Part shown: positions 25,541 through 61,299 of the stretch, piece by piece | How the letters are laid out: each line of letters starts with the position of its first letter | Numbering within the stretch: the stretch's first letter is position 1 | NCBI RefSeq assembly: GCF_035594765.1 | Contig: NW_026943824.1 | Location: 9,743,451 to 9,807,450, forward strand | Direction of reading: 5' to 3' | Length of the DNA: 64,000 nt | Origin: Anolis carolinensis | Taxonomy: Eukaryota | Program-made: the position numbers and the translations under genes | Notes under the pieces: model-generated | The model's input: the letters and a program-made list of their open reading frames with translations, nothing else | Databases searched by the model: none | What the model was told of the DNA's origin: nothing

Positions 25541-26317
25541 TAATAGTTTTCTGAGCTGCATACTTTAAATAGGTTTCTCACTCTAAGGACCTTCTCATCC
25601 CCAGACAACCCTGTAATAGGTTCATCTTAGACTTGACCCAGGCTAGAAATGACTTGATGTCACACCACCACTACCACAACAGAAAGTGATGTGAAAGACT
25701 AGGGTCTCTATTTAGAAATGCTCCAATTTAGAATCAGATAGTTCAGAATTTTTAAAGAAGAGTGAAGCTTAGGCTGCATAAATAAGGTGGGGTTGTGACC
25801 AGCCACATTTCTATCTGAAGAACATGGTTGCAATCATTAACCTAAATCTGTACCAGGAATACTACTGATGATAGTAGCAGTTTAAATTGAAACAATTAAT
25901 TGGTCGTTGAATGATGTATCATCATATAGGTAAATCCAACTCATTCATGATAAGAGTAGTGATAAATCAGAAATAACTTGAAGGCACACAACAACAATTA
26001 ATAAAAGTGATGATGGGAATGATAATGATGATGATGATGATGATGCATGAGAAACCCAACTAACAAATCACACATTGGGATTTACAGTTGGTATCCCAAA
26101 GTTCTCAAATGTCATGTTGCTGGCTCACGTACACTTTTCTCCATAACAATTAATACAATATATTGTAGTTTAATTTAACTGCAGCTAACAAAAACAGTGT
26201 GAAAACTGAAGAGGGCTCTTGCTCACAATGTTTGGAGATAACCCATGAAACCATCAAGACCAGGTCTTGAAAGCTGGCCACCCTAGACCAGATTTCAGCT
26301 TGTGTGCCACAAATTGA

Positions 26318-26366
<49 letters not shown>

Positions 26367-26368
<2 letters not shown>

Positions 26369-26830
26369 GCACGCAAAGATACTGTGGGACTTCCGAATCC
26401 AGACTGACAAAGTTCTGGAACACAACACACCAGACATCACAGTTGTGGAAAAGAAAAAGGTTTGGATCATTGATGTTGCCATCCCAGGTGACAGTCGCAT
26501 AGATGAAAAACAACAGGAAAAACTCTGCCGCTATCAGGACCTCAAGATTGAACTTCAAAGACTCTGGCAGAAACCAGTGCAGGTGGTCCCGGTGGTGATG
26601 GGCACACTGGGTGCCGTGCCAAAAGATCTCAGCCGGCATTTGGAAACAATAGACATTGACAAAATCACCATCTGCCAACTGCAAAAGGCCACCCTACTGG
26701 GATCTGCACACATCATCCGAAAATACATCACACAGTCCTAGACACTTGGGAAGTGTTCTACTTGTGGTTTTGCGAAACGAAATCCAGCATATCTGTCTTG
26801 TTTGCTGTGCCATACAACGTCGTTGTGTTG
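26367..26830 (+). mobile_element. 5'-truncated R4-clade (Dong-like) non-LTR retrotransposon: restriction-like endonuclease domain and 3' UTR
   Basis: KILWDFRIQTD..NTPDITVV..IIDVAIP..EK..YQDL is a PD-(D/E)xK RLE signature; stop at 26741; (AAT)n on both sides (26319-26368, 26831-26865). Confidence 0.9.
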
Positions 26831-29230: not shown

Positions 29231-29767
29231 TATGCTACCGAGCCCAATTCAAAGTGCTGGTTTTGACCTATAAATCCCTAAACGGTTCTGGCCCAATCTC
29301 CTTGTCCGAACGTATCTCCTCCTATGAGCCAGAAAGATCCCTAAGGTCATCTGGTGAGGCCCTGCTCTCGGACCCGCCTGCCTCACAAGTGCGGCTGGTG
29401 GGAACGAGGGACAGGGCCTTCTCGGTGGTGGCTCCCCGGCTGTGGAACACCCTCCCCAGAGAAAAATGGTAAGCCCCAACCCTTTTGAGTTTTAGAAAAG
29501 CCTTAAAAACATGGCTATGTGCTCAGGCTTTTAACGAATAAAAGACAAAGATGACCCAGACTGATGTATGGATAAAGTACGAGGATATTGGATGAGCAGA
29601 TTTTAAGCATATGTTTTATATTTTATACTGTATTTAACTGTTTGTAATAGATTTTATATGCTGTTTGTTTTTAATGATGTGTCAGCATCGAATTGTTGCC
29701 AATTGTACACCGCCCTGAGTCCCTTCGGGTGAGAAGGGCGGGATAGAAATATTGGAAATAAATAAAT
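29231..29767 (+). mobile_element. L2 LINE 3' end (young subfamily)
   Basis: VLTYKSLNG..LRSS..RAFSVVAPRLWNTLP; 3' stem-loop and (TAAA)n tail. Confidence 0.9.
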
Positions 29768-31212
29768 ACTGTTGTTCAGAGTATCAGTTGGAGCTAGAAC
29801 TATATATATTCTTTTGTTAAAACAAGCTTCCAAACCTTTCTTCCAGTACCGCATAAATGATAAGATCCTTTTTACAGAATCTGGGAAGAATGCATAATCA
29901 ACCTTTTCTGCACAAATAGATATAGCAGAAAGAGACAAGAGAGAGTTCTTTCATGGAATCATGAAAGGGTGTTGTTTTGATTCTGCAGAATTACAAGCAA
30001 TACATTTCCCTTGCAATGAAAGTGCTAGCTTGATTAAAAACAGCAATTTCCACCAAGAAACAACTAATTACATTGATAGCATATTAACAGACTATGTAAA
30101 AGAAGTGGAAATGCAGTGATAAATCTAGCAAAGTAATTATATAAATTGAAGCATTTTGTCTAAAAGTGGGATAAAAGTTGTCAGAAAAGTGTTATTTATT
30201 TCGTACCAAGCTAATATTATAGGAGCAAACATCCAGGCAGGTGGAGTGTATCAAAATATTAATTACATGGGCTCATCTTCCCGCTTATAATAAATGTTCT
30301 CTGCCTGCCTTGCTTCAAAGGAATTACTGCAGAGATGTTTGAATTATTCAGAGGTGTCTACCTCACTGCACGTGGAGCTTTATGCAAATCAGGAAATATT
30401 TGGACAGACGAACAGTGCAGAAGTAAAATTTATTTTTATTGCTATTATTTAAAAAAACCCAAATTTGCATAATTTAGTCTGGATTTTCATAGGCTGTTTA
30501 TCAGGACTCCTGGCAGTAGAATTCAAGACAAACACTTGACAGTGTGTAAACTGTCACAACAATTAGTGTTATATTTCTGCCAGCAAGACCTCACCGAGAT
30601 CCTGTGACAGCTCCGAAGGAATTATAATGGCTGCCAGTGCTCTTCAGGTCCCAAACTAACCTACCAGGAATACCATTCAAAGACTTAAACCCTTGAGAAA
30701 TTGATACTTGAAGGAGTATCTTTCTTTATATATGCCTTCCTGACCATTAAGATGTGCCAAAGAGACCATTTCTGATAGCTGCAGCAATCCATTCTGTAGG
30801 GGCTTTCTCCACTGTGGCAATCCAGTTGAGCTTCTAACCTACTAAATTGTCTTAGATTGTTATTTACTTTTAGGCCTTTATCACACTAAGGACCTCATCA
30901 CATTAGGTTCCCTAACGTGGGAATTATGGCAAATCCATGAGGCAGCAGGGGAATCCATTGCCCTATGTCCACCAGCTCCTGCAACCCTGTCTTCCTCATC
31001 ACACGGAGGAACACATCACTGCCAAGATTTCCCCTGTAATATCCCCATTGCTGGTGATGAGAAAATGGAAAGCCTCCTGTGTTGCTTAGTCATAGGATGC
31101 TAGGAAGTTTGGGGACAGAGTCCTGCCAGAAGTAGCTGTGTGTTGTTTGATGGGGTCCAGCGGGCTCTGTCTCTGAACTGTGCTAAGAGTGTCCTACAAT
31201 GAGTAAGTTTTC

Positions 31213-32338
31213 GGGGTGTGGTGTCATCTGTACGCAGATGATGTCCAGTTCTGTCACCCCTTCCCACCTGTCACTAATGAGGCTGTTCAGGTCCTGAACC
31301 AGTGTCTGGCCGCTGTGTCGGACTGGATGAGGGCGAACAAATTGAAACTGAATCCAGACAAGACAGAGGTTCTCCTGGTCAGTTGCAAGGCTGAACAGGG
31401 AATAGGGTTACAGCCTGTGTTGGATGGGGTTGCACTCCCCCTGAAGACACAGGTTCACAGTCTGTGGGTTCTCCTGGACTCATCGTTGAGCCTAGAGCCC
31501 CAGGTTTCAGCAGTGGCCAGGGAAACATTTGCACAACTAAGACTTGTGCGCCAGCTGCGCCCGTTTCTTGGGAGGTCTGATTTGGCCACGGTGGTCCACG
31601 CTCTGGTTACATCCTGTCTGGAATCATAGAATCATAGAATAGATTCTATGATTCCAGACAGGATGTAACCAGAGCGTGGAATGTTGAAGATGGCCTGGAA
31701 GCTCCAATTAGTACAACGGGCAGCAGCCAGATTAATAACTGGGGTGGCATACAGGGAGCGCACCCCCCCCCCTGCTAAGCCAGCTCTACTGGCTGCCGAT
31801 ATGCTACCGAGCCCAATTCAAAGTGCTGGTTTTGACCTATAAAGCCCTAAACGGTTCTGGCCCAATCTCCTTGTCCGAACATATCTCCTCCTATGAGCCA
31901 GGAAGATCCCTAAGGTCATCTGGTGAGGCCCTGCTCTCGGTCCCGCCTGCCTCACAAGTGCGGCTGGTGGGAACGAGGGACAGGGCCTTCTCTGTGGTGG
32001 CTCCCCGGCTGTGGAACACCCTCCCCAGATATATACGGCAAGCCTCAACCCTTTTGACCTTTAGAAAAGCCCTAAAAACATGGCTATGGGCTCAGGCTTT
32101 TAACGAATAAAAGACAAAGATGACCTGGACTGATGTATGCCTAAACCATGAGGATATTGGATGAATGGATTATAACTATATGTTTTATATTTTATACTGT
32201 ATTAATTGTTTGTAATAGATTTTATATGCTGTTTGATTTTAATTATGTGTCGGCATCGAATTGTTGCCAATTGTATGCCGCCCTGAGTCCCTTCGGGTGA
32301 GAAGGGCGGGATAGAAATATTGGAAATAAATAAATAAG
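31213..32338 (+). mobile_element. 5'-truncated L2 LINE (RT C-terminal half) with internal palindrome
   Basis: YADD, WM..NKLKLNPDKTE, LVTS, HWLP-like and RAFSVVAPRLWN motifs; (TAAA)n tail. Confidence 0.92.
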
Positions 32339-42700: not shown

Positions 42701-42971
42701 CCACATGAAAAATTCATATTGCATTTTTGAGGTGGGGGGGAGTTACTTTGGTTATGCTATGCAGCCATGGTTATTTGTCTTGAGAACACCTTACACCTGT
42801 TTTTTCTTTCCTCGCCAAATGCATCTGGTCCATCTTTGTCTTTGCTCGCTGCCACCAGCTGCCCCATCTGTCATGGAGCAGCAATGTGGCAGTTAGCAGC
42901 ATTTGACAAAGTTGACAGAAAGAAGGAAAAATGGCAGGCGAGGAATTCTGCCATCAAGCAAAGCAAAGGTG

Positions 42972-43839
42972 TGTCAAAACCCAGGCTACGGAGCACCAAT
43001 AACCATGCGCAGAGGCCAGATACTATTTAATATCTTTATTAAAGGAATATATAAAGTCAATAAAAACAAGTGAAGAATGAAGTTCAGAAGTAGACCTTTC
43101 AGGAAAGGTCAAATATAGTCCAGAAAAGCAATGTCCAATATGTGATATTAGAGTCCAAAGTTATAATCCAATAACCGAAACACACACTTTGCCAAGCAAA
43201 GTGTGGGGAAATGACAAGGTCCTTTAGTCCAATGGAGCTTGACAACAAGGCTGGAAAACAAACTAGATTCTTGGCAAACAAGACTTGATACGAGGCAACA
43301 AGAAGCAAGAAGCAAGAACAAGGTCCGTGGCGAGGTCCGAAGAACAAGGCAGGCTTGGAACTAGAACAAGGTCCTGGAAACAAGGAACTGGAGTTGCGTA
43401 GTCCACACACGATCTCACTCCCGAAGCTGACGAATTGACTCCGCAAGGATCTCCTTGCGGTAAAACAGCTATATAGGATCTTGTTTTCCCGCCAAGGAAC
43501 ACTTTCCCTGGGGAACAAGAAGTGAAACCCAAGCTGTGTCCAGATGCATGACTCCTTAAGATTTCCCAAGGGAAACAGGCTTAATCAGCTAATTGTCTGG
43601 CAGCGATTCTGGTGCTTCGGCGATTCGCCTCCCTAGCGCCTCTATCTCGATTATAATTATCCCGGCGAGAGAACGGGGGAGAATTCTGCCCAAGGCTTGT
43701 TTGGCTGACTTCTTGAGGGCAAACATCCTGCAGGTGCAGGGGCTCCGATTCTGGCTGAATCGGTGGGAAACCAAAGTTTTCCTCTTCGTCTGCCACAATA
43801 GTACTAGGAACGGGACTACATGGCCCATGAGACATCACA
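42972..43839 (-). repeat. 3' LTR
   Basis: Direct repeat of 47784-48651, preceded by the PPT on the minus strand. Confidence 0.97.
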
Positions 43840-44330
43840 CTATCCCCCTCCTCAAGGCCCCTCTCAAAAATGGGCCCTCTTCCCGAGGTGCGGGGCCGCG
43901 GCTTGGCAGGGTAGGCCTGATGGAAGCGGCGGACTAAGTCGGGGGCATGGACTGTGGAAGCGTCTTCCCAAGAGCATTCTTCGGGGCCAAAACCCACCCA
44001 GTCAATGAGATACTGAAGGCGGCGGCGATGAAAGCGAGAATCCAAAATGTCCTGAACCTCGAATTCCTCCTCCCCGTCCACCAAAACAGGGGCGGGGGCC
44101 GGCTGGTCCACATCGGGGCGTACCCCATCCGCCGGAAGGAGCAGGGAACGATGAAACACTGGATGAATGCGCATAGAGCGCGGAAGTTGGAGTTTGAAAG
44201 TCACGGGGTTAAGTTGCGCCACCACTGGGTAGGGACCAATGAAACGGGCATCTAGCTTCCGGCAGGGACGGTGGGAGGGCAAAAAGCGAGTGGACAATAG
44301 GACCCGATCTCCTACCTTGATCTCGGGGCC
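43581..44330 (-). pseudogene. pol: Integrase C-terminus: GPY/F module, chromodomain, LTR-encoded tail
   Basis: KLDARFIGPY; FEVQDILDSR..QYLIDWVGFGPEECSWE chromodomain; ORF continues into the LTR to a stop at 43581. Confidence 0.9.
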
Positions 44331-46740
44331 GACTTGGTAAAAAGGTCCACCACCACTAGGATCGTGGTATATCCAAGGGAAGGTGGTAGATCAGTGATAA
44401 AATCTGCAGAAATTATCTCCCATGGGCGAGATGGAGTAGGAAGGGGATGCAGTAGCCCTGAGGGCTTCTCCCTTCTTATCTTGGAGCGCTGGCATACCGG
44501 GCAGGTATTGACATATTTCTCCACATCCTTGCGGATCTTGGGCCACCAGAAATCTCGTAGGATCAAATGCATGGTTTTGAAAAGTCCAAAATGCCCTGCT
44601 GGCTTGCTGTCATGGCACAGACGAAGTGTCTTTTCTCTGCCGGGGTCTGGAGGGATGTAAACATGATTCCTGTAGCACAGTAGCCCATCCTTAAGTGAGA
44701 AAGGGAAACGTAGTCCTTGGCAAATCTGTTCTTGAACCCAGGCATCTGCCTGTTGACTGGCTCTAATCTCTTGAGCGCAAAGGGGTTCTGGGTTAGAAGG
44801 AGTTGATTCAATTGGAGTGGATTTGGTGTTTCCCACTGTGAGCGTGGCAAAGTTCTCGGGTTGCAGCAATCGGGATTCGAAGGTCTCTCTGCGTCCTGCA
44901 GCATACTCTGGTTTTCGTGATACGAGCATCTGCTTGCTTGGTCTGAGCCGGGGTTACATAATGGATCTGGAAGTCAAAACGCTCAAAGAATAAAGCCCAG
45001 CGCTGCTGCCTCTGATTTAGCTTGCGGGCAGTTCTTAGATGTTCCAAATTACGATGATCAGTATGAACCTCAATGGGAAATTTGGCCCCTTCTAACCAAT
45101 GCCTCCAATTTTCAAAGGCTGCCTTTATGGCCAAAAGTTCCTTCTCCCAAATAGTATAATTTCTCTCTGGGGCTGTTAGTTGACGGGAGTAAAAGGCACA
45201 AGGATAAAGATGTTCTCCCACTGGTTGCATGAGTACAGCCCCAATTGCCACATCGGAGGCGTCAGTCTGCACAACGAAAGGGGTTTTAGGATCAGGGTGC
45301 TGTAGAATTGGTTGGGACGTGAACAACTTCTTTAATTGCTGGAACCCTTTCTCTGCTTGCTCCGTCCAGCGGAAAGGCTGTTTCCCACGGATGCAGCTGG
45401 TGATTGGGTCAGACCAGCGGGCAAAGTTTGGGATGAATTTGCAGTAGTAGTTCGCGAACCCCAAGAAACGTTGCACTTCTTTCTTGTTGGTTGGCGCCCG
45501 CCATTCCAATACTGCTGAAACCTTTGCCGGGTCCATGGAGAGCCCTTGTGGCGAGACACGGTATCCCAGGAAGTCTACCTCTTGTAGGTCAAAAGCGCAC
45601 TTTTCCAACTTGGCATATAGCCCATGATCCCGCAATCGTTGTAGCACCATCCTGACGTGCTTCTCATGCTCCGATTGTGATCTAGAAAACACCAAAAAAA
45701 TCGTCCAAGTAAATGATCAAGAACCGATCTAGATAATCCTGGAAGATATCATTGACAAAATGCTGGAACGTTGCGGGAGCTCCGGATAATCCGTAATTCT
45801 TGACTAGGGACTCGAATAATCCGAATTTGGTCTGGAAAGCGGTTTTCCATTCGTCCCCCTCCCTGATGCGAACTAGATTGTAAGCCCCCCGGAGATCCAG
45901 CTTGGTGTAAACCTTGGCCCCTCGAAGTCGGTCTAATAGGTCTGAGATCAAAGGCAGGGGGTAGCGGTTCCGCTTCGTGATATTGTTCAATGCTCTATAG
46001 TCCACAACCAAGCGTAAGTCCCCTGACTTCTTTTTCACAAACATCACCGGGGAGGCAGCTGGGGATTGAGAGGGTCTGATGAATCCCTTGCAAAGATTTG
46101 ACTCTATGAACTCCCTGAGAGCTTCTTGCTCTGGTTCAGTCAGGGAGTAGAGGTGTCCTCGCGGGATCGGGGCCCCCTCCGCCAAGTCAATGGCACAATC
46201 GTAGGGTCTATGCGGGGGTAGTTTCTCGGCTTCTTTTTCATTGAAAACATCCCAAAAGTCTGAGTATTTCTTGGGCAAGGTGATGATGGGTTCAGCGTCT
46301 GTGGCATGGCAGACCTTGGCTACAAGACAATGGTTTTGGCAATATTTAGAAGCAAACTGCAGTGTTCTGTTGGTCCAGGAGATGTTTGGGTCGTGGAGTG
46401 TCAGCCATGGAATTCCCAAAATCACAGGGAAGTGGGGGACCTCGGTAACAAAGAAGGAAATCTTTTCCATGTGTTCCCTTATCCACATTCTGGTGGGCTC
46501 AGTCCATTGGCTTACTGGACCCATCTTTAGGGGACGGCCATCTATAGCCTGCACCACCCGGGCATTCTTGAAATCGTGATATTGTAATCCCAGAGAGTCG
46601 GCGTACTCTCTGTCAATGAAATTGTTTGTTGCTCCTGAGTCTATCATGGCATGGATCATGACGGGTCCTTTTTTCGCTGACCACAACGTGACCACTAGGA
46701 GGAATAGGACCCCGGTTTGCGGCTCTTGAGTGGGGTTTTT
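44331..46740 (-). pseudogene. pol: pol: protease, RT, RNase H, integrase N-terminus (frameshifted)
   Basis: MIDSGAT (PR); KLDLRGAYN and YLDD (RT); TDASD and EKELLAI (RH); H..H..C..C and DFITDLP (IN); frameshifts near 45690 and 44920. Confidence 0.93.
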
Positions 46741-46761: not shown

Positions 46762-47740
46762 CTACGCCCGGTCGCTGGCTTCCCCCGCCGGCTTGGCTCC
46801 AGCCGCCTCGGCCGTCTCTGTCTCCGCGGAGGACGCCGCCGCCAGGCGAGCGGCGGGCTTTCTCTTGGCTGGACATTCTCTGGCGAAGTGGCCCCCGTTC
46901 CCGCAGTACCAGCAGAGGTTTAACCGTTGGCCTTTTCGGCTACATCTATTCTGGGGCGCACATTGCCCAACTGCATCGGCTCTTCCTCGCTTCCCCTGGG
47001 GTATGGGGCTGGTGGTGGGGGTCTCCACACTGGACGTGGCTGAATACTGGCGGAAGCAGGGGGTTTCACTCCTGCTCTTCCACTTTGGCCTCGGAGCCAC
47101 TGTTTTTTGTTGGCAAGCAGGACTTCGGCTTGTAAACAATGGTTGATAAGTCTCTCAAGAGAATTTGGAGGATCCACCTTGGAGATTTCTTCCTGCATCT
47201 CGATATTGAGACCCTCACGAAACTGTCCTCTGAGGGCTATATCGTTCCAACCGGTGTTTTGGGCCACACCCGGAACTCGGCTATGTACTGGGACAACGGC
47301 CTGTCTCCTTGGAAGAGGCGCCGGAGTTTATGGCCGGCCGCCTCCTCGTTGTCCTCGATCCCCCAGGTCGCCTTAAGGTGATTCAAGAAGTTTTGCGCGG
47401 AACTTAGGTGCATGGAGCCCGCATCAAATAGCGCCATCGCCCAATTGGCCGCTGGCCCTTCTAGGAGACTATAAATCCACGCCACCTTGACATCTTCTTG
47501 GGGAAATTCGGCTTGACGGGCTTCTATGTATGCCTGGCATTGGCAACGGAAAACATGAACCTTGGAGGCTTCTCCAGAAAACTTGGTTGGAAGTGCCAGG
47601 CCAGGGAGCCGGATACCTCGTTCCTTCAAGCCCCGTATTTCTCCCTCCTGCGTATGGAGTGTATCACGGATTCTGTCTAATTCATCCTTGGAAATAGTGT
47701 AGCTGAGTGGTTGGGCTTCCGCCCCGGTTCCTGTAGACAT
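46762..47740 (-). pseudogene. gag: gag (sushi/PEG10-like capsid and CCHC zinc knuckle), two frameshifts
   Basis: PTKFSG..LLEGPAANW..LFQGDRPLSQYIAEF, WNDIAL..FREGL, EPMQLG and CWYCGNGGHFAREC are spread over three ORFs. Confidence 0.92.
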
Positions 47741-47783
47741 CCTGGCCTTAGGTTAATTGGTGCTTAGGGGGGCGGAGTCAAAC

Positions 47784-48651
47784 TGTCAAAACCCAGGCTA
47801 CGGAGCACCAATAACCATGCGCAGAGGCCAGATACTATTTAATATCTTTATTAAAGGAATATATAAAGTCAATAAAAACAAGTGAAGAATGAAGTTCAGA
47901 AGTAGACCTTTCAGGAAAGGTCAAATATAGTCCAGAAAAGCAATGTCCAATATGTGATATTAGAGTCCAAAGTTATAATCCAATAACCGAAACACACACT
48001 TTGCCAAGCAAAGTGTGGGGAAATGACAAGGTCCTTTAGTCCAATGGAGCTTGACAACAAGGCTGGAAAACAAACTAGATTCTTGGCAAACAAGACTTGA
48101 TACGAGGCAACAAGAAGCAAGAAGCAAGAACAAGGTCCGTGGCGAGGTCCGAAGAACAAGGCAGGCTTGGAACTAGAACAAGGTCCTGGAAACAAGGAAC
48201 TGGAGTTGCGTAGTCCACACACGATCTCACTCCCGAAGCTGACGAATTGACTCCGCAAGGATCTCCTTGTGGTAAAACAGCTATATAGGATCTTGTTTTC
48301 CCGCCAAGGAACACTTTCCCTGGGGAACAAGAAGTGAAACCCAAGCTGTGTCCAGATGCATGACTCCTTAAGATTTCCCAAGGGAAACAGGCTTAATCAG
48401 CTAATTGTCTGGCAGCGATTCTGGTGCTTCGGCGATTCGCCTCCCTAGCGCCTCTATCTCGATTATAATTATCCCGGCGAGAGAACGGGGGAGAATTCTG
48501 CCCAAGGCTTGTTTGGCTGACTTCTTGAGGGCAAACATCCTGCAGGTGCAGGGGCTCCGATTCTGGCTGAATCGGTGGGAAACCAAAGTTTTCCTCTTCG
48601 TCTGCCACAATAGTACTAGGAACGGGACTACATGGCCCATGAGACATCACA
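47784..48651 (-). repeat. 5' LTR
   Basis: Minus-strand TATATA at 48282-48287; differs from the 3' LTR at one position I could find (48269 vs 43457 region, TTGTGG vs TTGCGG). Confidence 0.97.
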
Positions 48652-49410
48652 AGGTGGTGGAGAGGTTTCCAACTTACGGGACACAATAGTCCCTGAGCTC
48701 ATTAGCAGGCCTTTGTGAGGAAGACAACAATTTACCTATGATTAATATATTTCAATAACTACACATACTTTCTAGAAATAATCAGGTGTCTTGAAATGGA
48801 CCCTATGTATTTGGAGTAAGCAAAAGAAAGAGGCAATACCAATGGCCTCGAATATCTGAGGACAACAAAATGATGCCAGATCTTTGTTCCTCATTTGGGT
48901 CAAAATTTCTTCTTGTGATTGTAATGTGAAGAGCATTGTGAATATCAATCATTTTTAGGGCTCAGGAGGTCTTACTGTTTAACTGAGCTGAGACTGAAGT
49001 CCAGTATGTTGCTTGGTAACAAAAGATGTAGATGAGTGAGTGACTAAATCTACCATATGGCTGGGCATTTTGCCCTATTCACCTGTGACATGACTACACA
49101 TGTAATGCCTTACCGATTTATAGTATGCTTTATCAAATTTTACTACTCAGAACTGCAAGTTACTGACAGGTAGTCTATTGGTGTGGGAAATAAAATGATG
49201 TTTTCCCGAGTGCATCCCGAGTGAACATTCAATAATTTAAACAAGTTGCTATCTTAGAAGTTCATGTACTAAAGTTAACTTTGGAATCAAAGTAGTAATC
49301 TTCTATAATTTGAAAAAAAGATGTCTGCAAATAAATCCACAAGTTTTTAAGCCTCCATCGCAACTTACGAAATTAGAGTTGTGTGTATTGAAGGGAGCAA
49401 ATGTGATCTA

Positions 49411-49887: not shown

Positions 49888-50622
49888 GTTTATTTATATC
49901 CCCCCTCCATCTCCCCCGAAGGGGACTCGGGGCGGCTTACAGCAAAATCAAAATACAAACAATGATAAAATATAAAACATCAGGCCAAAAACAAAAACCA
50001 ATAAAAAATATACACAATAAGTTAAAAAACACAACGCAGAATTAAAACATCAGGTTAAAAACAATGAGGTTGCAATAGTGGATAAGCAAAGTGTACGGTG
50101 CACATTATGGGTAACAAATTCATAAATAGATAAAGTGCATTAGAATCATTTAAGGTCACATTAGGTACGGTAGGGAGGAGTCCTGAGTAATATCAATCAA
50201 TCAGGAATCGGGAAGAGCGACCAGTGCAAAAGGTCGATTGTGATGGAAAAAAGATGATCTTAACCAAAGGCCTGAGTGAAAAGCCAAGTTTTCAGACTCT
50301 TCCGAAATGCCATCAAGGTGGGGGCTTGCCTGATCTCCCTAGGCAGCGAATTCCACAACCGGGGGGCCACTACAGAGAAGGCCCTGTCCCTCGTCCCCAC
50401 CAACCGCGCTTGCGATGCTGGCGGAAGCGAGAGGAGGGCCTCCCTCGATGACCGAAGAGACCGTACAGGTTCGTAGGGGGAGAGACGATCCCGAAGGTAG
50501 ATGGGTCCCAAACCGTTTTGAGCTTTATAGGTGATCACCAGCACTTTGAATTGGGTCCGGAAAATAAGCGGCAGCCAGTGGAGCTCCTTAAACATGAGGG
50601 TTGACCGCTCTCTGTGAGCGGT
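49821..50622 (-). mobile_element. L2 3' fragment with (AAT)n tract
   Basis: KELHWLP..FKVLVITYK..RAFSVVAPRLWNSLP in ORF 50260-50745(-); (AAT)n at 49821-49887. Confidence 0.9.
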
Positions 50623-51427
50623 CTTGATTCTGTGAGCTATGTTTTCTTTGGAACACTCCACTGTATATAATCTTGGAGACCTATTGCAATCTACTTTGAC
50701 AGTAGGTCTATTGATGTGGTCTGTGAAATAGATGGCTGATTGCACTTTCAGGAAAGGCTTGCAGAACCAGGCATGTTTTCAAGAAATGTCTGCATTTGTT
50801 GGAGCATGTCTAACTTCTAAGACAAGTGTATTTCATACAAGGCTGAAAGCTATGGAGATTGGGCCCAGGTTAACCATTGCCATAAACAGTTTCAAACCAG
50901 GGATTGGAGTTAAATGCTCTATTGACTGTACCATACAACATTACACATTTCTTGACATTACCAAGGGTGTTTCTTTAAAAGCCAGCACCCATAACACATT
51001 TCTTTTTTGCCAAATGTCTGAGCTTTGAGCCCTTTCCCTCCTCTCTCCTTGTAGCTGACATTACCATGTTTTTGCATCCTACATTTTTGAGTCCTTTTTC
51101 TTGTGGTTCAAGATACCTTCTCTCGAAGCACGCCAACCCTTGCCTCTTTTTATGGGATCGCTGTGCGCTCTCTTACAGCTGTCTACTGCACTAATAAAGA
51201 AGATGTTTGTGGCCATGACCTACCTGAACCATTATACGCTAATCATATTGAGCAATTGCAAGCAGATTGATTAAATGCCACGGATCTCCCTTGAGGACCA
51301 GCGAGACCACAATCCTCGGCTCACCACCCCTTAACAGATGGCATGATAATGTTTTTTAACAGCACACTGAAGGGAGCAGGTGGCTAAGAGCCATTAGGGG
51401 AAGGCTGTTTCTGAGACCAGCGAACTA

Positions 51428-59754: not shown

Positions 59755-60583
59755 TAATAATAATAATAACTTTATTCTTATACCCTGCCCCATCTCCCCG
59801 AAGGGACTTGGGGCGGCTTACATGGGGCCAAGCCCGGAACAACAATATAAAAACAAAAGCAAACAGTAAAAACAAATCAATCAACAATAAAACATCAAAC
59901 AACGATAAAAACAGTCATAAAAGTCACATACAAAAGAAAATCTTAAAATCCCAACGATCTGGGTCAAGGTGCAAAATATGTCGATGTCAACGGGGAGGGG
60001 AGATTACCCAGCTGTCATAGTCAATTACAGTGCAATTATAATACTGGGGAAGGCATACCTGAGGGTCTAATACTGAGTAGGCAAACAGGTCAATCCCACA
60101 GGGATCAGTCATCAAAGGCCTTCTGGAAGAGCCAGGTTTTCAGCCTCCTCCGAAAGGAGAGGAGGGTAGGGGCCTGCCTGATCTCCCTGGGGAGGGAGTT
60201 CCAAAGCTGGGGGGCCACGATGGAGAAGGCCCTCTCCCTCGTCCCCACCAACCGCGACTGTGAGGGTGGTGGGAGCGAGAGGAGGGCCTGCCCGACGAGC
60301 GAAGAGATTGTGCGCGTTCATAGGGGGAAATGCGGTCTCGAAGGTAGGTGGGTCCCAAACCGCTTAGGGCTTTGTAGGTAATGACCTGCACCTTGAATTG
60401 GGCCTGGAAGATAAACGGCAGCCAATGGAGCTCCTTAAACAGTGGCGTTGAACGCGCCCTGTAATTTTCTCCAGTTAGAAACCTGGCTGTCGAGCGTTGT
60501 ACTAATTGTAATTTCCAAGCCGTCTTCAAAGGCAGCCCCACATAGAGCGCATTGCAATAATCCAGTCTAGAGGTAACTAAGGC
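59755..60583 (-). mobile_element. L2 3' fragment
   Basis: GLPLKTAWKLQLVQ..KELHWLP..FKVQVITYKAL in ORF 60140-60541(-). Confidence 0.9.
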
Positions 60584-61299
60584 CTTTTATTTTATCACAA
60601 GTATAATTTCATGTTCCTACAGTGTGGCAGTTCAGTCACACCACTAATTTATCCACTTGTTATCCTTGGGAGGCAGGGTGCATTCAAATACAGTACTTGT
60701 CTATTCTCTGACAAGGCCACGTAAAACAAATATCTGTTTTTGTATCCTATCTGATGCAATTTACAATCATTGTTTCCACTGCAGGTTTGCTCCCTTGCCC
60801 ATCAGCAAACACACATTCTATAAATTTCCCCCATATTTTCCAAAGATCATTTAATTTACAAATTCCTTTTTAGTCTTAATGACCGCATGTCATTTTATCA
60901 TTTATTGCTATTTTCCATACTTCTTTGTACCAATCTTCTAACTGAATCCTGCAAGGCATTGCCAAAAAGCCAATGCATCTATTTTAAATATGTGAATAGT
61001 TAACATTCACACACTTGGTGAAAGAGCACCACTATGCTTTAGTTGATGTGGAAAGACTGTGTGAGTTAGGTAAACTGTGCAAATAATTTAGCGCATTAGG
61101 AAAATGTGTAGAAAAGGAGTGCGATTTTCATTACAAGAGGAAAATGCCATGTCTCTCAACTTAACACAAAACAAGGATGGGTTGAAAATACAGGTGCAAT
61201 TCAGAGAAACTCAGTGAGATCCAAACTGAGAAAATTTCATCTTCCTGCTAAATAGTTATGAAAGCACCCAAATCTACAGGTTGGAAAGCAGCCCAAATC

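Follow-up and report, generated by a model that had tools for sequence, protein, structure and literature searches.

The minus strand of a 64,000-nt stretch of the Anolis carolinensis genome (hereafter the window) raises the question of whether a chromovirus integrase can continue through the PPT into the LTR and whether the HMGN-like motif at the end of such a tail could help it to hold nucleosomes. A preliminary description had proposed both, with the chromodomain and an LTR-encoded arginine anchor acting as a two-part tether. Nucleosome engagement by LTR retrotransposon integration complexes is known for few elements. The Anolis tail supplies a candidate that is short, of peptide size and under selection, and a nearly identical motif has already been tested in another protein; the question is therefore well suited to standard nucleosome assays.

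The tail forms the 3′ part of a 5,680-nt Ty3/gypsy element on the minus strand. The two 868-nt LTRs (5′ LTR, TG...CA, 47784–48651; 3′ LTR, 42972–43839, with AATAAA at LTR nt 800) differ by a single base and are flanked by a 5-bp target-site duplication, CACCT (42967–42971 and 48652–48656). Between them are gag (46762–47752), with a Ty3 capsid-like domain and a CCHC zinc knuckle spread over three frames, and pol (44312–46740), in which protease, RT, RNase H and the integrase zinc finger are broken into several frames. An integrase SH3-like (GPY/F) domain (SH3_Tf2-1, Pfam PF24626, E 8e-16; 44136–44312) is followed by a chromodomain (Pfam Chromo, E 2e-11; 43905–44075) with HP1-beta as its best PDB match (E 6e-10). 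Pfam ordered the domains as capsid, zinc knuckle, protease, RT, RNase H, integrase zinc finger, SH3_Tf2-1 and Chromo, and the features of a chromovirus were found together: PR-RT-RH-IN order between LTRs, PBS, PPT, TSD and a chromodomain in the C-terminal part of the integrase. Residues F, W and F of the chromodomain align with Y, W and F of the HP1 cage, as in type I aromatic cages, and the domain would be expected to recognize methylation on a histone tail. Ordinary repeats were recognized by eye elsewhere in the window: LINE-end-like fragments (26271–26741, 31207–31629, 50260–50778 and 60140–60586), repeats at 29231–29768 and 31800–32336, ATT microsatellites and short interspersed repeats.

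The PBS (47772–47781) is of the self-priming type; its 10 nt are complementary to LTR nt 396–405 and are not tRNA-like, a layout described for the Tf1/sushi group (PMC6317226). The self-primer sequence begins 31 nt past a TATA box at LTR nt 365 (both within 43435–43475), so transcription probably starts near nt 396, which would place LTR nt 2–259 in U3. Given Tf1-type self-priming, the U3/R boundary would fall approximately 135 nt downstream of the ORF stop. The element is young and, by its layout, a Tf1/sushi-group chromovirus, a placement made beside an SH3 and chromodomain tree built without Sushi-ichi, Amn or Tf1 sequences; the closest protein matches carry the A. carolinensis label. The window copy itself is dead. 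About half a kilobase of the integrase catalytic core is deleted at 44326–44331 compared with all eight relatives shown, and gag and pol are frame-split, so no integrase can be made from it and the read-through must be treated as a family trait, which other copies show in full.

The frame 44390–43581 on the minus strand has no stop after the chromodomain, as the preliminary description held. It encodes SH3_Tf2-1 and the chromodomain, crosses the chromodomain-to-LTR segment (43840–43904), which includes the PPT (43853–43843, read in frame as ...GLEEGDS), enters the 3′ LTR at 43839 and closes with a stop codon that ends at LTR nt 259. The U3-encoded tail (LTR nt 2–259; 43581–43839) comprises an acidic Pro-rich linker, an SPPF block and a basic tip. 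Its net charge is −7 over the first 60 aa and +5 over the last 30 aa. The HMGN-like motif RRSTRIAAR was located where it had been reported, at 43596–43622 on the minus strand, and the matching ORF was present in each LTR; the copy in the 5′ LTR (48650–48393) lies upstream of the inferred transcription start. The ORF beginning with the ATG at LTR nt 5 is 84 aa long and not 85, a figure that counts the Val preceding the ATG. Shuffling of the window tail produced RRSxR[IL] in 0.15% of cases. The T of RRSTRIAA is private to the window copy, and the family form, RRSARIAA, is closer to HMGN than had been claimed. At position 43613, another letter accounted for 84–100% of depth in four independent sequencing runs. 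No recurrent splice-like joint was found in these four runs, whose type was guessed and which covered the whole stretch as short contigs; they are uninformative on expression. A further 161-codon stop-free frame occupies the remainder of the LTR (43099–43584 and 47911–48396, minus strand) and is probably due to chance because it has no codon-position signal across subfamilies.

Retention in the genome was assessed with 113 distinct copies that have both a chromodomain and a 3′ LTR, after two duplicates were dropped and 5′ or solo LTR loci, 30 tail-less loci and histone loci were set aside; they were the best-scoring matches among thousands of candidates and are biased toward intact copies. RRSxR[IL] was present in some frame in 107 of them, across six subfamilies, five of which were recruited by protein searches, and the frame was open from chromodomain to motif in 91. 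The motif read RRSARIAA in 93 copies and RRSLRIAA in eight, six other variants occurred once each and six copies had none. Among the best 30 of 3,828 DNA candidates, 24 read to the same stop, and 26 had RRSARIAA and one, the window copy, the T variant. Most copies also had no stop ahead of the PPT or within it; an early stop in the family consensus, which would have counted against the original proposal, was not what we found. In one search, 84 of the best 94 matches lay within a single 1261-aa frame, i.e., whole pol frames ending in the motif, and a UniRef cluster (P0078) with RT, RNase H, integrase and chromodomain has the C terminus RRSARIAAKNLAN. The set least biased toward the tail, retrieved with a query of mainly SH3 and chromodomain, gave 14 of 29 copies open and 13 of 29 with an early stop, and 26 of 29 carried the motif. 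The tail beyond the chromodomain measures 105–119 residues, 83–97 of them U3-encoded; the ATG at LTR nt 5 is present in nearly all copies, and the copies found were spread along all large contigs. No further lineage in the Anolis genome appeared among the top matches of Podarcis and Rhineura queries.

Early stops came mainly from altered lengths of a tract of eight G residues at the PPT of subfamily C (L091–L112). The run is uninterrupted in this subfamily and is 6, 7 or 9 long in 11 copies, which breaks the read-through. Loss of read-through by subfamily C as a whole was considered and rejected: G-run lengths of 6, 7, 8 and 9 are interleaved on the trees, and the slips fall here and there between open copies in either tree, apart from one supported three-copy clade that shares a single slip. 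They may be assembly errors or slippage after insertion. In the other subfamilies the G run is broken by A or C, and such interruptions could be the result of selection against slippage. The chromodomain-to-LTR segment is weakly constrained (dN/dS 0.72), and in open copies of all six subfamilies it is stop-free and in phase, at 62, 65 or 68 nt.

Selection was analyzed with 27 natural copies, no more than six per subfamily, taken from 69 with an open, motif-ending frame; the subfamilies are 56–85% identical in the U3 tail region. The preliminary description had called for dN/dS and ORF retention in the first 260 nt of U3, and the frame proved open in most copies, as above, with a between-subfamily dN/dS of 0.31 for the U3 tail, compared with 0.16 before the chromodomain, 0.08 in the chromodomain and 0.18 in the tip. 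At the eight motif codons, pN was 0.09 and pS 0.79, in a set whose restriction to open, motif-ending copies lowers motif pN and forces net phase; the motif states of each subfamily in the set were the majority states in the unselected tallies. Arg alternates between CGN and AGR codons, and this silent turnover speaks against an element acting at the DNA level. When the DNA was aligned blind to reading frame, U3 pN/pS was 0.45 in the pol frame (95% CI 0.35–0.55), 1.04 in the two other forward frames and 0.60 in the reverse frame sharing third positions, whereas downstream of the stop, in the rest of the LTR, it was 0.68–0.94 over all six frames. Divergence in the U3 tail was concentrated at third codon positions (0.47 vs 0.29 and 0.28) and was flat in the rest of the LTR (0.28, 0.28 and 0.27). 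Gap runs were multiples of three in 621 of 644 cases in the tail and 935 of 5,293 downstream, pairwise counts that are non-independent and reduce in the tail to roughly seven distinct indels. Motif residues R, R, S, R and A are identical across the six subfamilies, and position 4 varies (A/L/T/V); besides all three arginines and the Ser, the hydrophobic position that follows the anchor is fixed. HGP-S, D--EN-GF and SP-F-R are further invariant blocks. The U3 tail evolves under protein-level purifying selection.

These measurements bear on two accounts in which the integrase tail is of little consequence. An unused open frame, left as a neutral by-product of constraints on LTR sequence, would fit with a U3 start that is constrained at the DNA level and with young copies that have had little time to gain stops; set against it are the frame-specific pN/pS, the third-position excess, the in-phase indels, the silent turnover of motif codons and the 2–12 stops in both other forward frames. 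This reading is largely refuted, and we regard it as scarcely credible. It is also very unlikely, although slightly less so, that the U3 ORF is a separate 84-aa protein started at the LTR ATG, for example in solo LTRs read from host promoters, with the pol fusion secondary. Such a protein would account for the near-universal ATG, for a U3 frame that stays open with the motif in most PPT-slipped copies of subfamily C and for the weak constraint on the joining segment. The ORF, however, is upstream of the TATA box and inferred start, which puts the 5′ LTR copy out of reach of the LTR promoter, and the ATG falls within the terminal bases that integrase must recognize. The joining segment, for its part, keeps its phase without stops in open copies of all six subfamilies, and proteins of Podarcis, Rhineura and snakes run in the same phase through a similar G[DR]-[SG]V stretch.

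Relatives outside Anolis were compared as proteins, and it is from protein sequence that the junction of PPT and LTR was placed for Podarcis, Rhineura, snakes and fish. Five Podarcis muralis proteins of two subtypes, distinguished by a six-residue linker indel, have a PPT-like GDGVM stretch and then an acidic Pro-rich linker that ends in [AS]PRRSARLKA; in their 15-member cluster these five have the tail at the C terminus, one member stops just past the chromodomain and nine end earlier. BLAST did not align the acidic Podarcis tail with the Anolis tail. Long acidic tails with other ends and without the motif were found in Rhineura (P0004, RGRPVSLRPKR), Crotalus (P0083) and Vipera (P0204), the snake tips being ARRRRQ... 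and arginine runs; the newt Pleurodeles and fish relatives also have different ends and no motif. The LRPKR of the Rhineura tip presumably recalls the chromatin-binding sequence of foamy virus Gag. Conservation of the motif in related families, as originally proposed, therefore held for the six diverged Anolis subfamilies and Podarcis but not for several related squamate lineages. Reading on beyond a PPT-like stretch seems to be widespread among vertebrate sushi-type elements, whose tips differ. The SH3 and chromodomain tree grouped the squamate sequences (88/92, not starred) next to those of amphibians and fish and does not resolve Anolis with Podarcis; the motif in these two may have a shared origin with losses, or be convergent.

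A wider set of 193 non-Anolis tails of at least 8 residues was drawn from 258 proteins with a chromodomain match, many of them spliced chimeras and part of them found with a profile that included Anolis tails. In this set RRSxR[ILV] occurred five times, compared with a mean of 0.30 and a maximum of 3 in 1000 shuffles; it is enriched, though uncommon. The reordered controls RRxSR and RxSRR showed no enrichment. An RGRP AT-hook core was present in 49 tails. Fish sushi-type integrases (among P0194–P0302) follow the chromodomain with an AT-hook-like RPxPRxRGRPRR, a PPT-like GGGSV and the end RxxSP[EV][YF], which was found in 19 of the 193 tails (shuffle mean 0.12) and in the named fish Labeo, Sinocyclocheilus, Astyanax and Dallia. 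This end may be a second LTR-encoded motif, the counterpart of SPPF/SPVF in the Anolis tail. Four non-vertebrate gypsy polyproteins, P0177 (Hibiscus), P0120, P0121 and P0148, end in PRRSARVK, QRTSARIAAR, PRRSSARLRR and NRRSTRRVR. The Anolis genome also holds a second abundant gypsy family (L031–L060, from the SH3 search) that stops eight residues past the SH3 domain and so lacks both chromodomain and tail at 30 of 30 loci; it has a short LTR and many open frames of 1596–1601 aa.

We consider that the RRSxR[IL] tip probably tethers integrase to the nucleosome acidic patch, by analogy with characterized binders. The family form RRSARIAA is identical at seven of eight positions to RRSARIAT of yeast Dot5 and at six of eight, including the three arginines, to RRSARLSA of HMGN. 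Nucleosome binding by the Dot5 sequence requires R6, R7 and R10 and the acidic patch (PMC13347269), and RRSAR of HMGN2, the five residues modeled in its cryo-EM structure, and RRSSR of Dsup are what was modeled on the patch, with the last Arg as anchor (10.1101/2025.01.06.631586). In HMGN, binding is weakened when the serine of this motif is phosphorylated, an effect that could mask a genuine interaction on chromosomes in mitosis. Acidic-patch tethers are also described for retroviruses, in PFV Gag and MLV p12 (PMC9040877). An HMGN-like core, RRSxR with its three arginines followed by a hydrophobic residue, was found in the 107 motif-bearing copies and in Podarcis. Genomic RNA holds U3 only at its 3′ end, so the tail would be translated as the end of Pol, and it would stay on integrase after processing. 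The last Arg of RRSxR would then occupy the H2A E61/D90/E92 pocket, as in HMGN2, Dsup and Dot5, and the first two would make a second contact. More speculatively, the flexible linker of approximately 90 residues might let the integration complex keep its grip on one face of a nucleosome as the chromodomain probes histone tails, a two-point hold that could help the complex to be captured by chromatin or kept there and not to choose a precise site. Complex prediction for the last 36 residues of copy L004 with Anolis H2A/H2B gave a score of 0.01 and a mark of 0.34, uninformative either way. The last 39 residues of the tail had no match in the PDB, and the tail had none in the Atlas. Homology to the HMGN family, with its nucleosome-binding domain, nuclear localization signal and acidic C-terminal domain, was absent, as Pfam reported only SH3, Chromo and Integrase_p58_C on the frame. 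Several points count against a tether: the motif is short, the long acidic tails of related squamates and the tails of newt and fish lack it, and 13 of 29 copies in the chromodomain-only search stop before the tip. The tail-less, chromodomain-less gypsy family is abundant in the same genome, showing that a family can multiply in this host without either part.

Two other roles for a genuine integrase tail must be weighed against the tether. The basic tip could be a nuclear localization signal (NLS) or a general DNA- or RNA-binding patch whose likeness to HMGN is incidental, which is in keeping with the other basic ends common in relatives, such as RGRP and the snake arginine runs. The N terminus of plant CMT2, needed for nuclear localization, contains RRSxR repeats (10.1101/2024.07.11.603080), although that paper gives the repeats themselves no such role, and Dot5 also binds free DNA at low salt (PMC13347269). 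A general basic signal, however, gives no reason to expect a fixed Ser at position 3 and a fixed Ile or Leu at position 6, or Arg and not Lys at all three sites despite silent codon changes, and the enrichment of RRSxR[ILV] but not of its reordered controls likewise speaks against it; we consider this role unlikely. Yeast Ty elements, which carry targeting peptides, are a precedent for the second role, in which the motif is a docking or phosphorylation site for some other partner, be it a chromatin or trafficking factor of the host or the capsid that the element encodes, and SPPF and DEENxGF are further sites. The invariance of the other blocks of the tail across the six subfamilies would be explained in this way, and the different conserved end of the fish relatives suggests that such linear motifs are interchangeable. 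No candidate partner has emerged, however, and the near-identity to a tested acidic-patch binder points elsewhere; of these two roles, docking is the more improbable.

Comparison with known systems shows which parts of the arrangement have precedents. Vertebrate Tf1/sushi chromoviruses (V-clade: Sushi-ichi, Amn) share with the Anolis family the Gag-protease-RT-RNase H-integrase order, an SH3 domain with an HP1-like chromodomain, a self-priming PBS, TG...CA LTRs and a 5-bp TSD (group features as given in the accessible part of PMC6317226). The Anolis family differs from them in its long tail ending in RRSxR[IL], a comparison made for Sushi-ichi and Amn through the group description; the accessible text of PMC3601003 makes no mention of an ORF in Sushi LTRs. 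Fish relatives are unlike Anolis in having shorter tails with an AT-hook-like start and their own end. Plant CRM group A already provides a case of a 3′ LTR that encodes the tail of an integrase, which there carries the targeting CR motif (PMC3059260; PMC5818461); CR takes the place of the chromodomain, has no identified partner and belongs to elements that gather at centromeres (PMC3059260). The Anolis family is similar in layout but not a member: CRM group A elements are plant elements with CR in place of a chromodomain and a tRNA-Met PBS, whereas the lizard family has a chromodomain and a self-priming PBS, and CR and the Anolis tail were compared by description. In HMGN (RRSARLSA), Dsup (RRSSRLTS) and Dot5 (RRSARIAT), as in Anolis, the motif lies in a low-complexity charged region, with no homology beyond the motif; compared with HMGN, the Anolis motif is at the integrase C terminus, lacks the second Ser and is preceded by the acidic region. 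The arginine anchors of foamy virus Gag CBS, MLV p12, KSHV LANA and hCMV IE1 resemble the proposed one, but in the accessible text of the review (PMC9040877) they belong to Gag products or herpesvirus proteins and not to integrase, no chromodomain accompanies them and no LTR encodes them; that text makes no mention of retrotransposons. In the literature covered, with subscription papers, Repbase notes and figures mostly outside its scope, no retrotransposon integrase was found to be described as having an HMGN-like motif or an anchor for the acidic patch. The novelty originally suggested therefore applies to the combination of a chromodomain with an HMGN-type motif and not to the encoding of an integrase tail by the 3′ LTR.

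A broader generalization is offered tentatively and is possible rather than probable. Ty3/gypsy integrases may repeatedly have gained an HMGN-type C-terminal arginine anchor as a nucleosome grip, which in squamates would be U3-encoded and form a two-point tether with the chromodomain. The tips of P0249, P0098, P0007, P0131 and P0177 (frog-clade, fungal-type and plant) would be the same device, and LTR-encoded tails, including plant CR, would be a swappable slot for chromatin-binding motifs. If the acidic-patch tether is real, a retrotransposon integrase would join the acidic-patch binders, and the HMGN-like motif would no longer be confined to HMGN, Dsup and Dot5. It would also mean that between a quarter and a third of an LTR can be protein-coding and under selection, which would bear on the way in which LTR evolution and solo LTRs are interpreted in reptile genomes.
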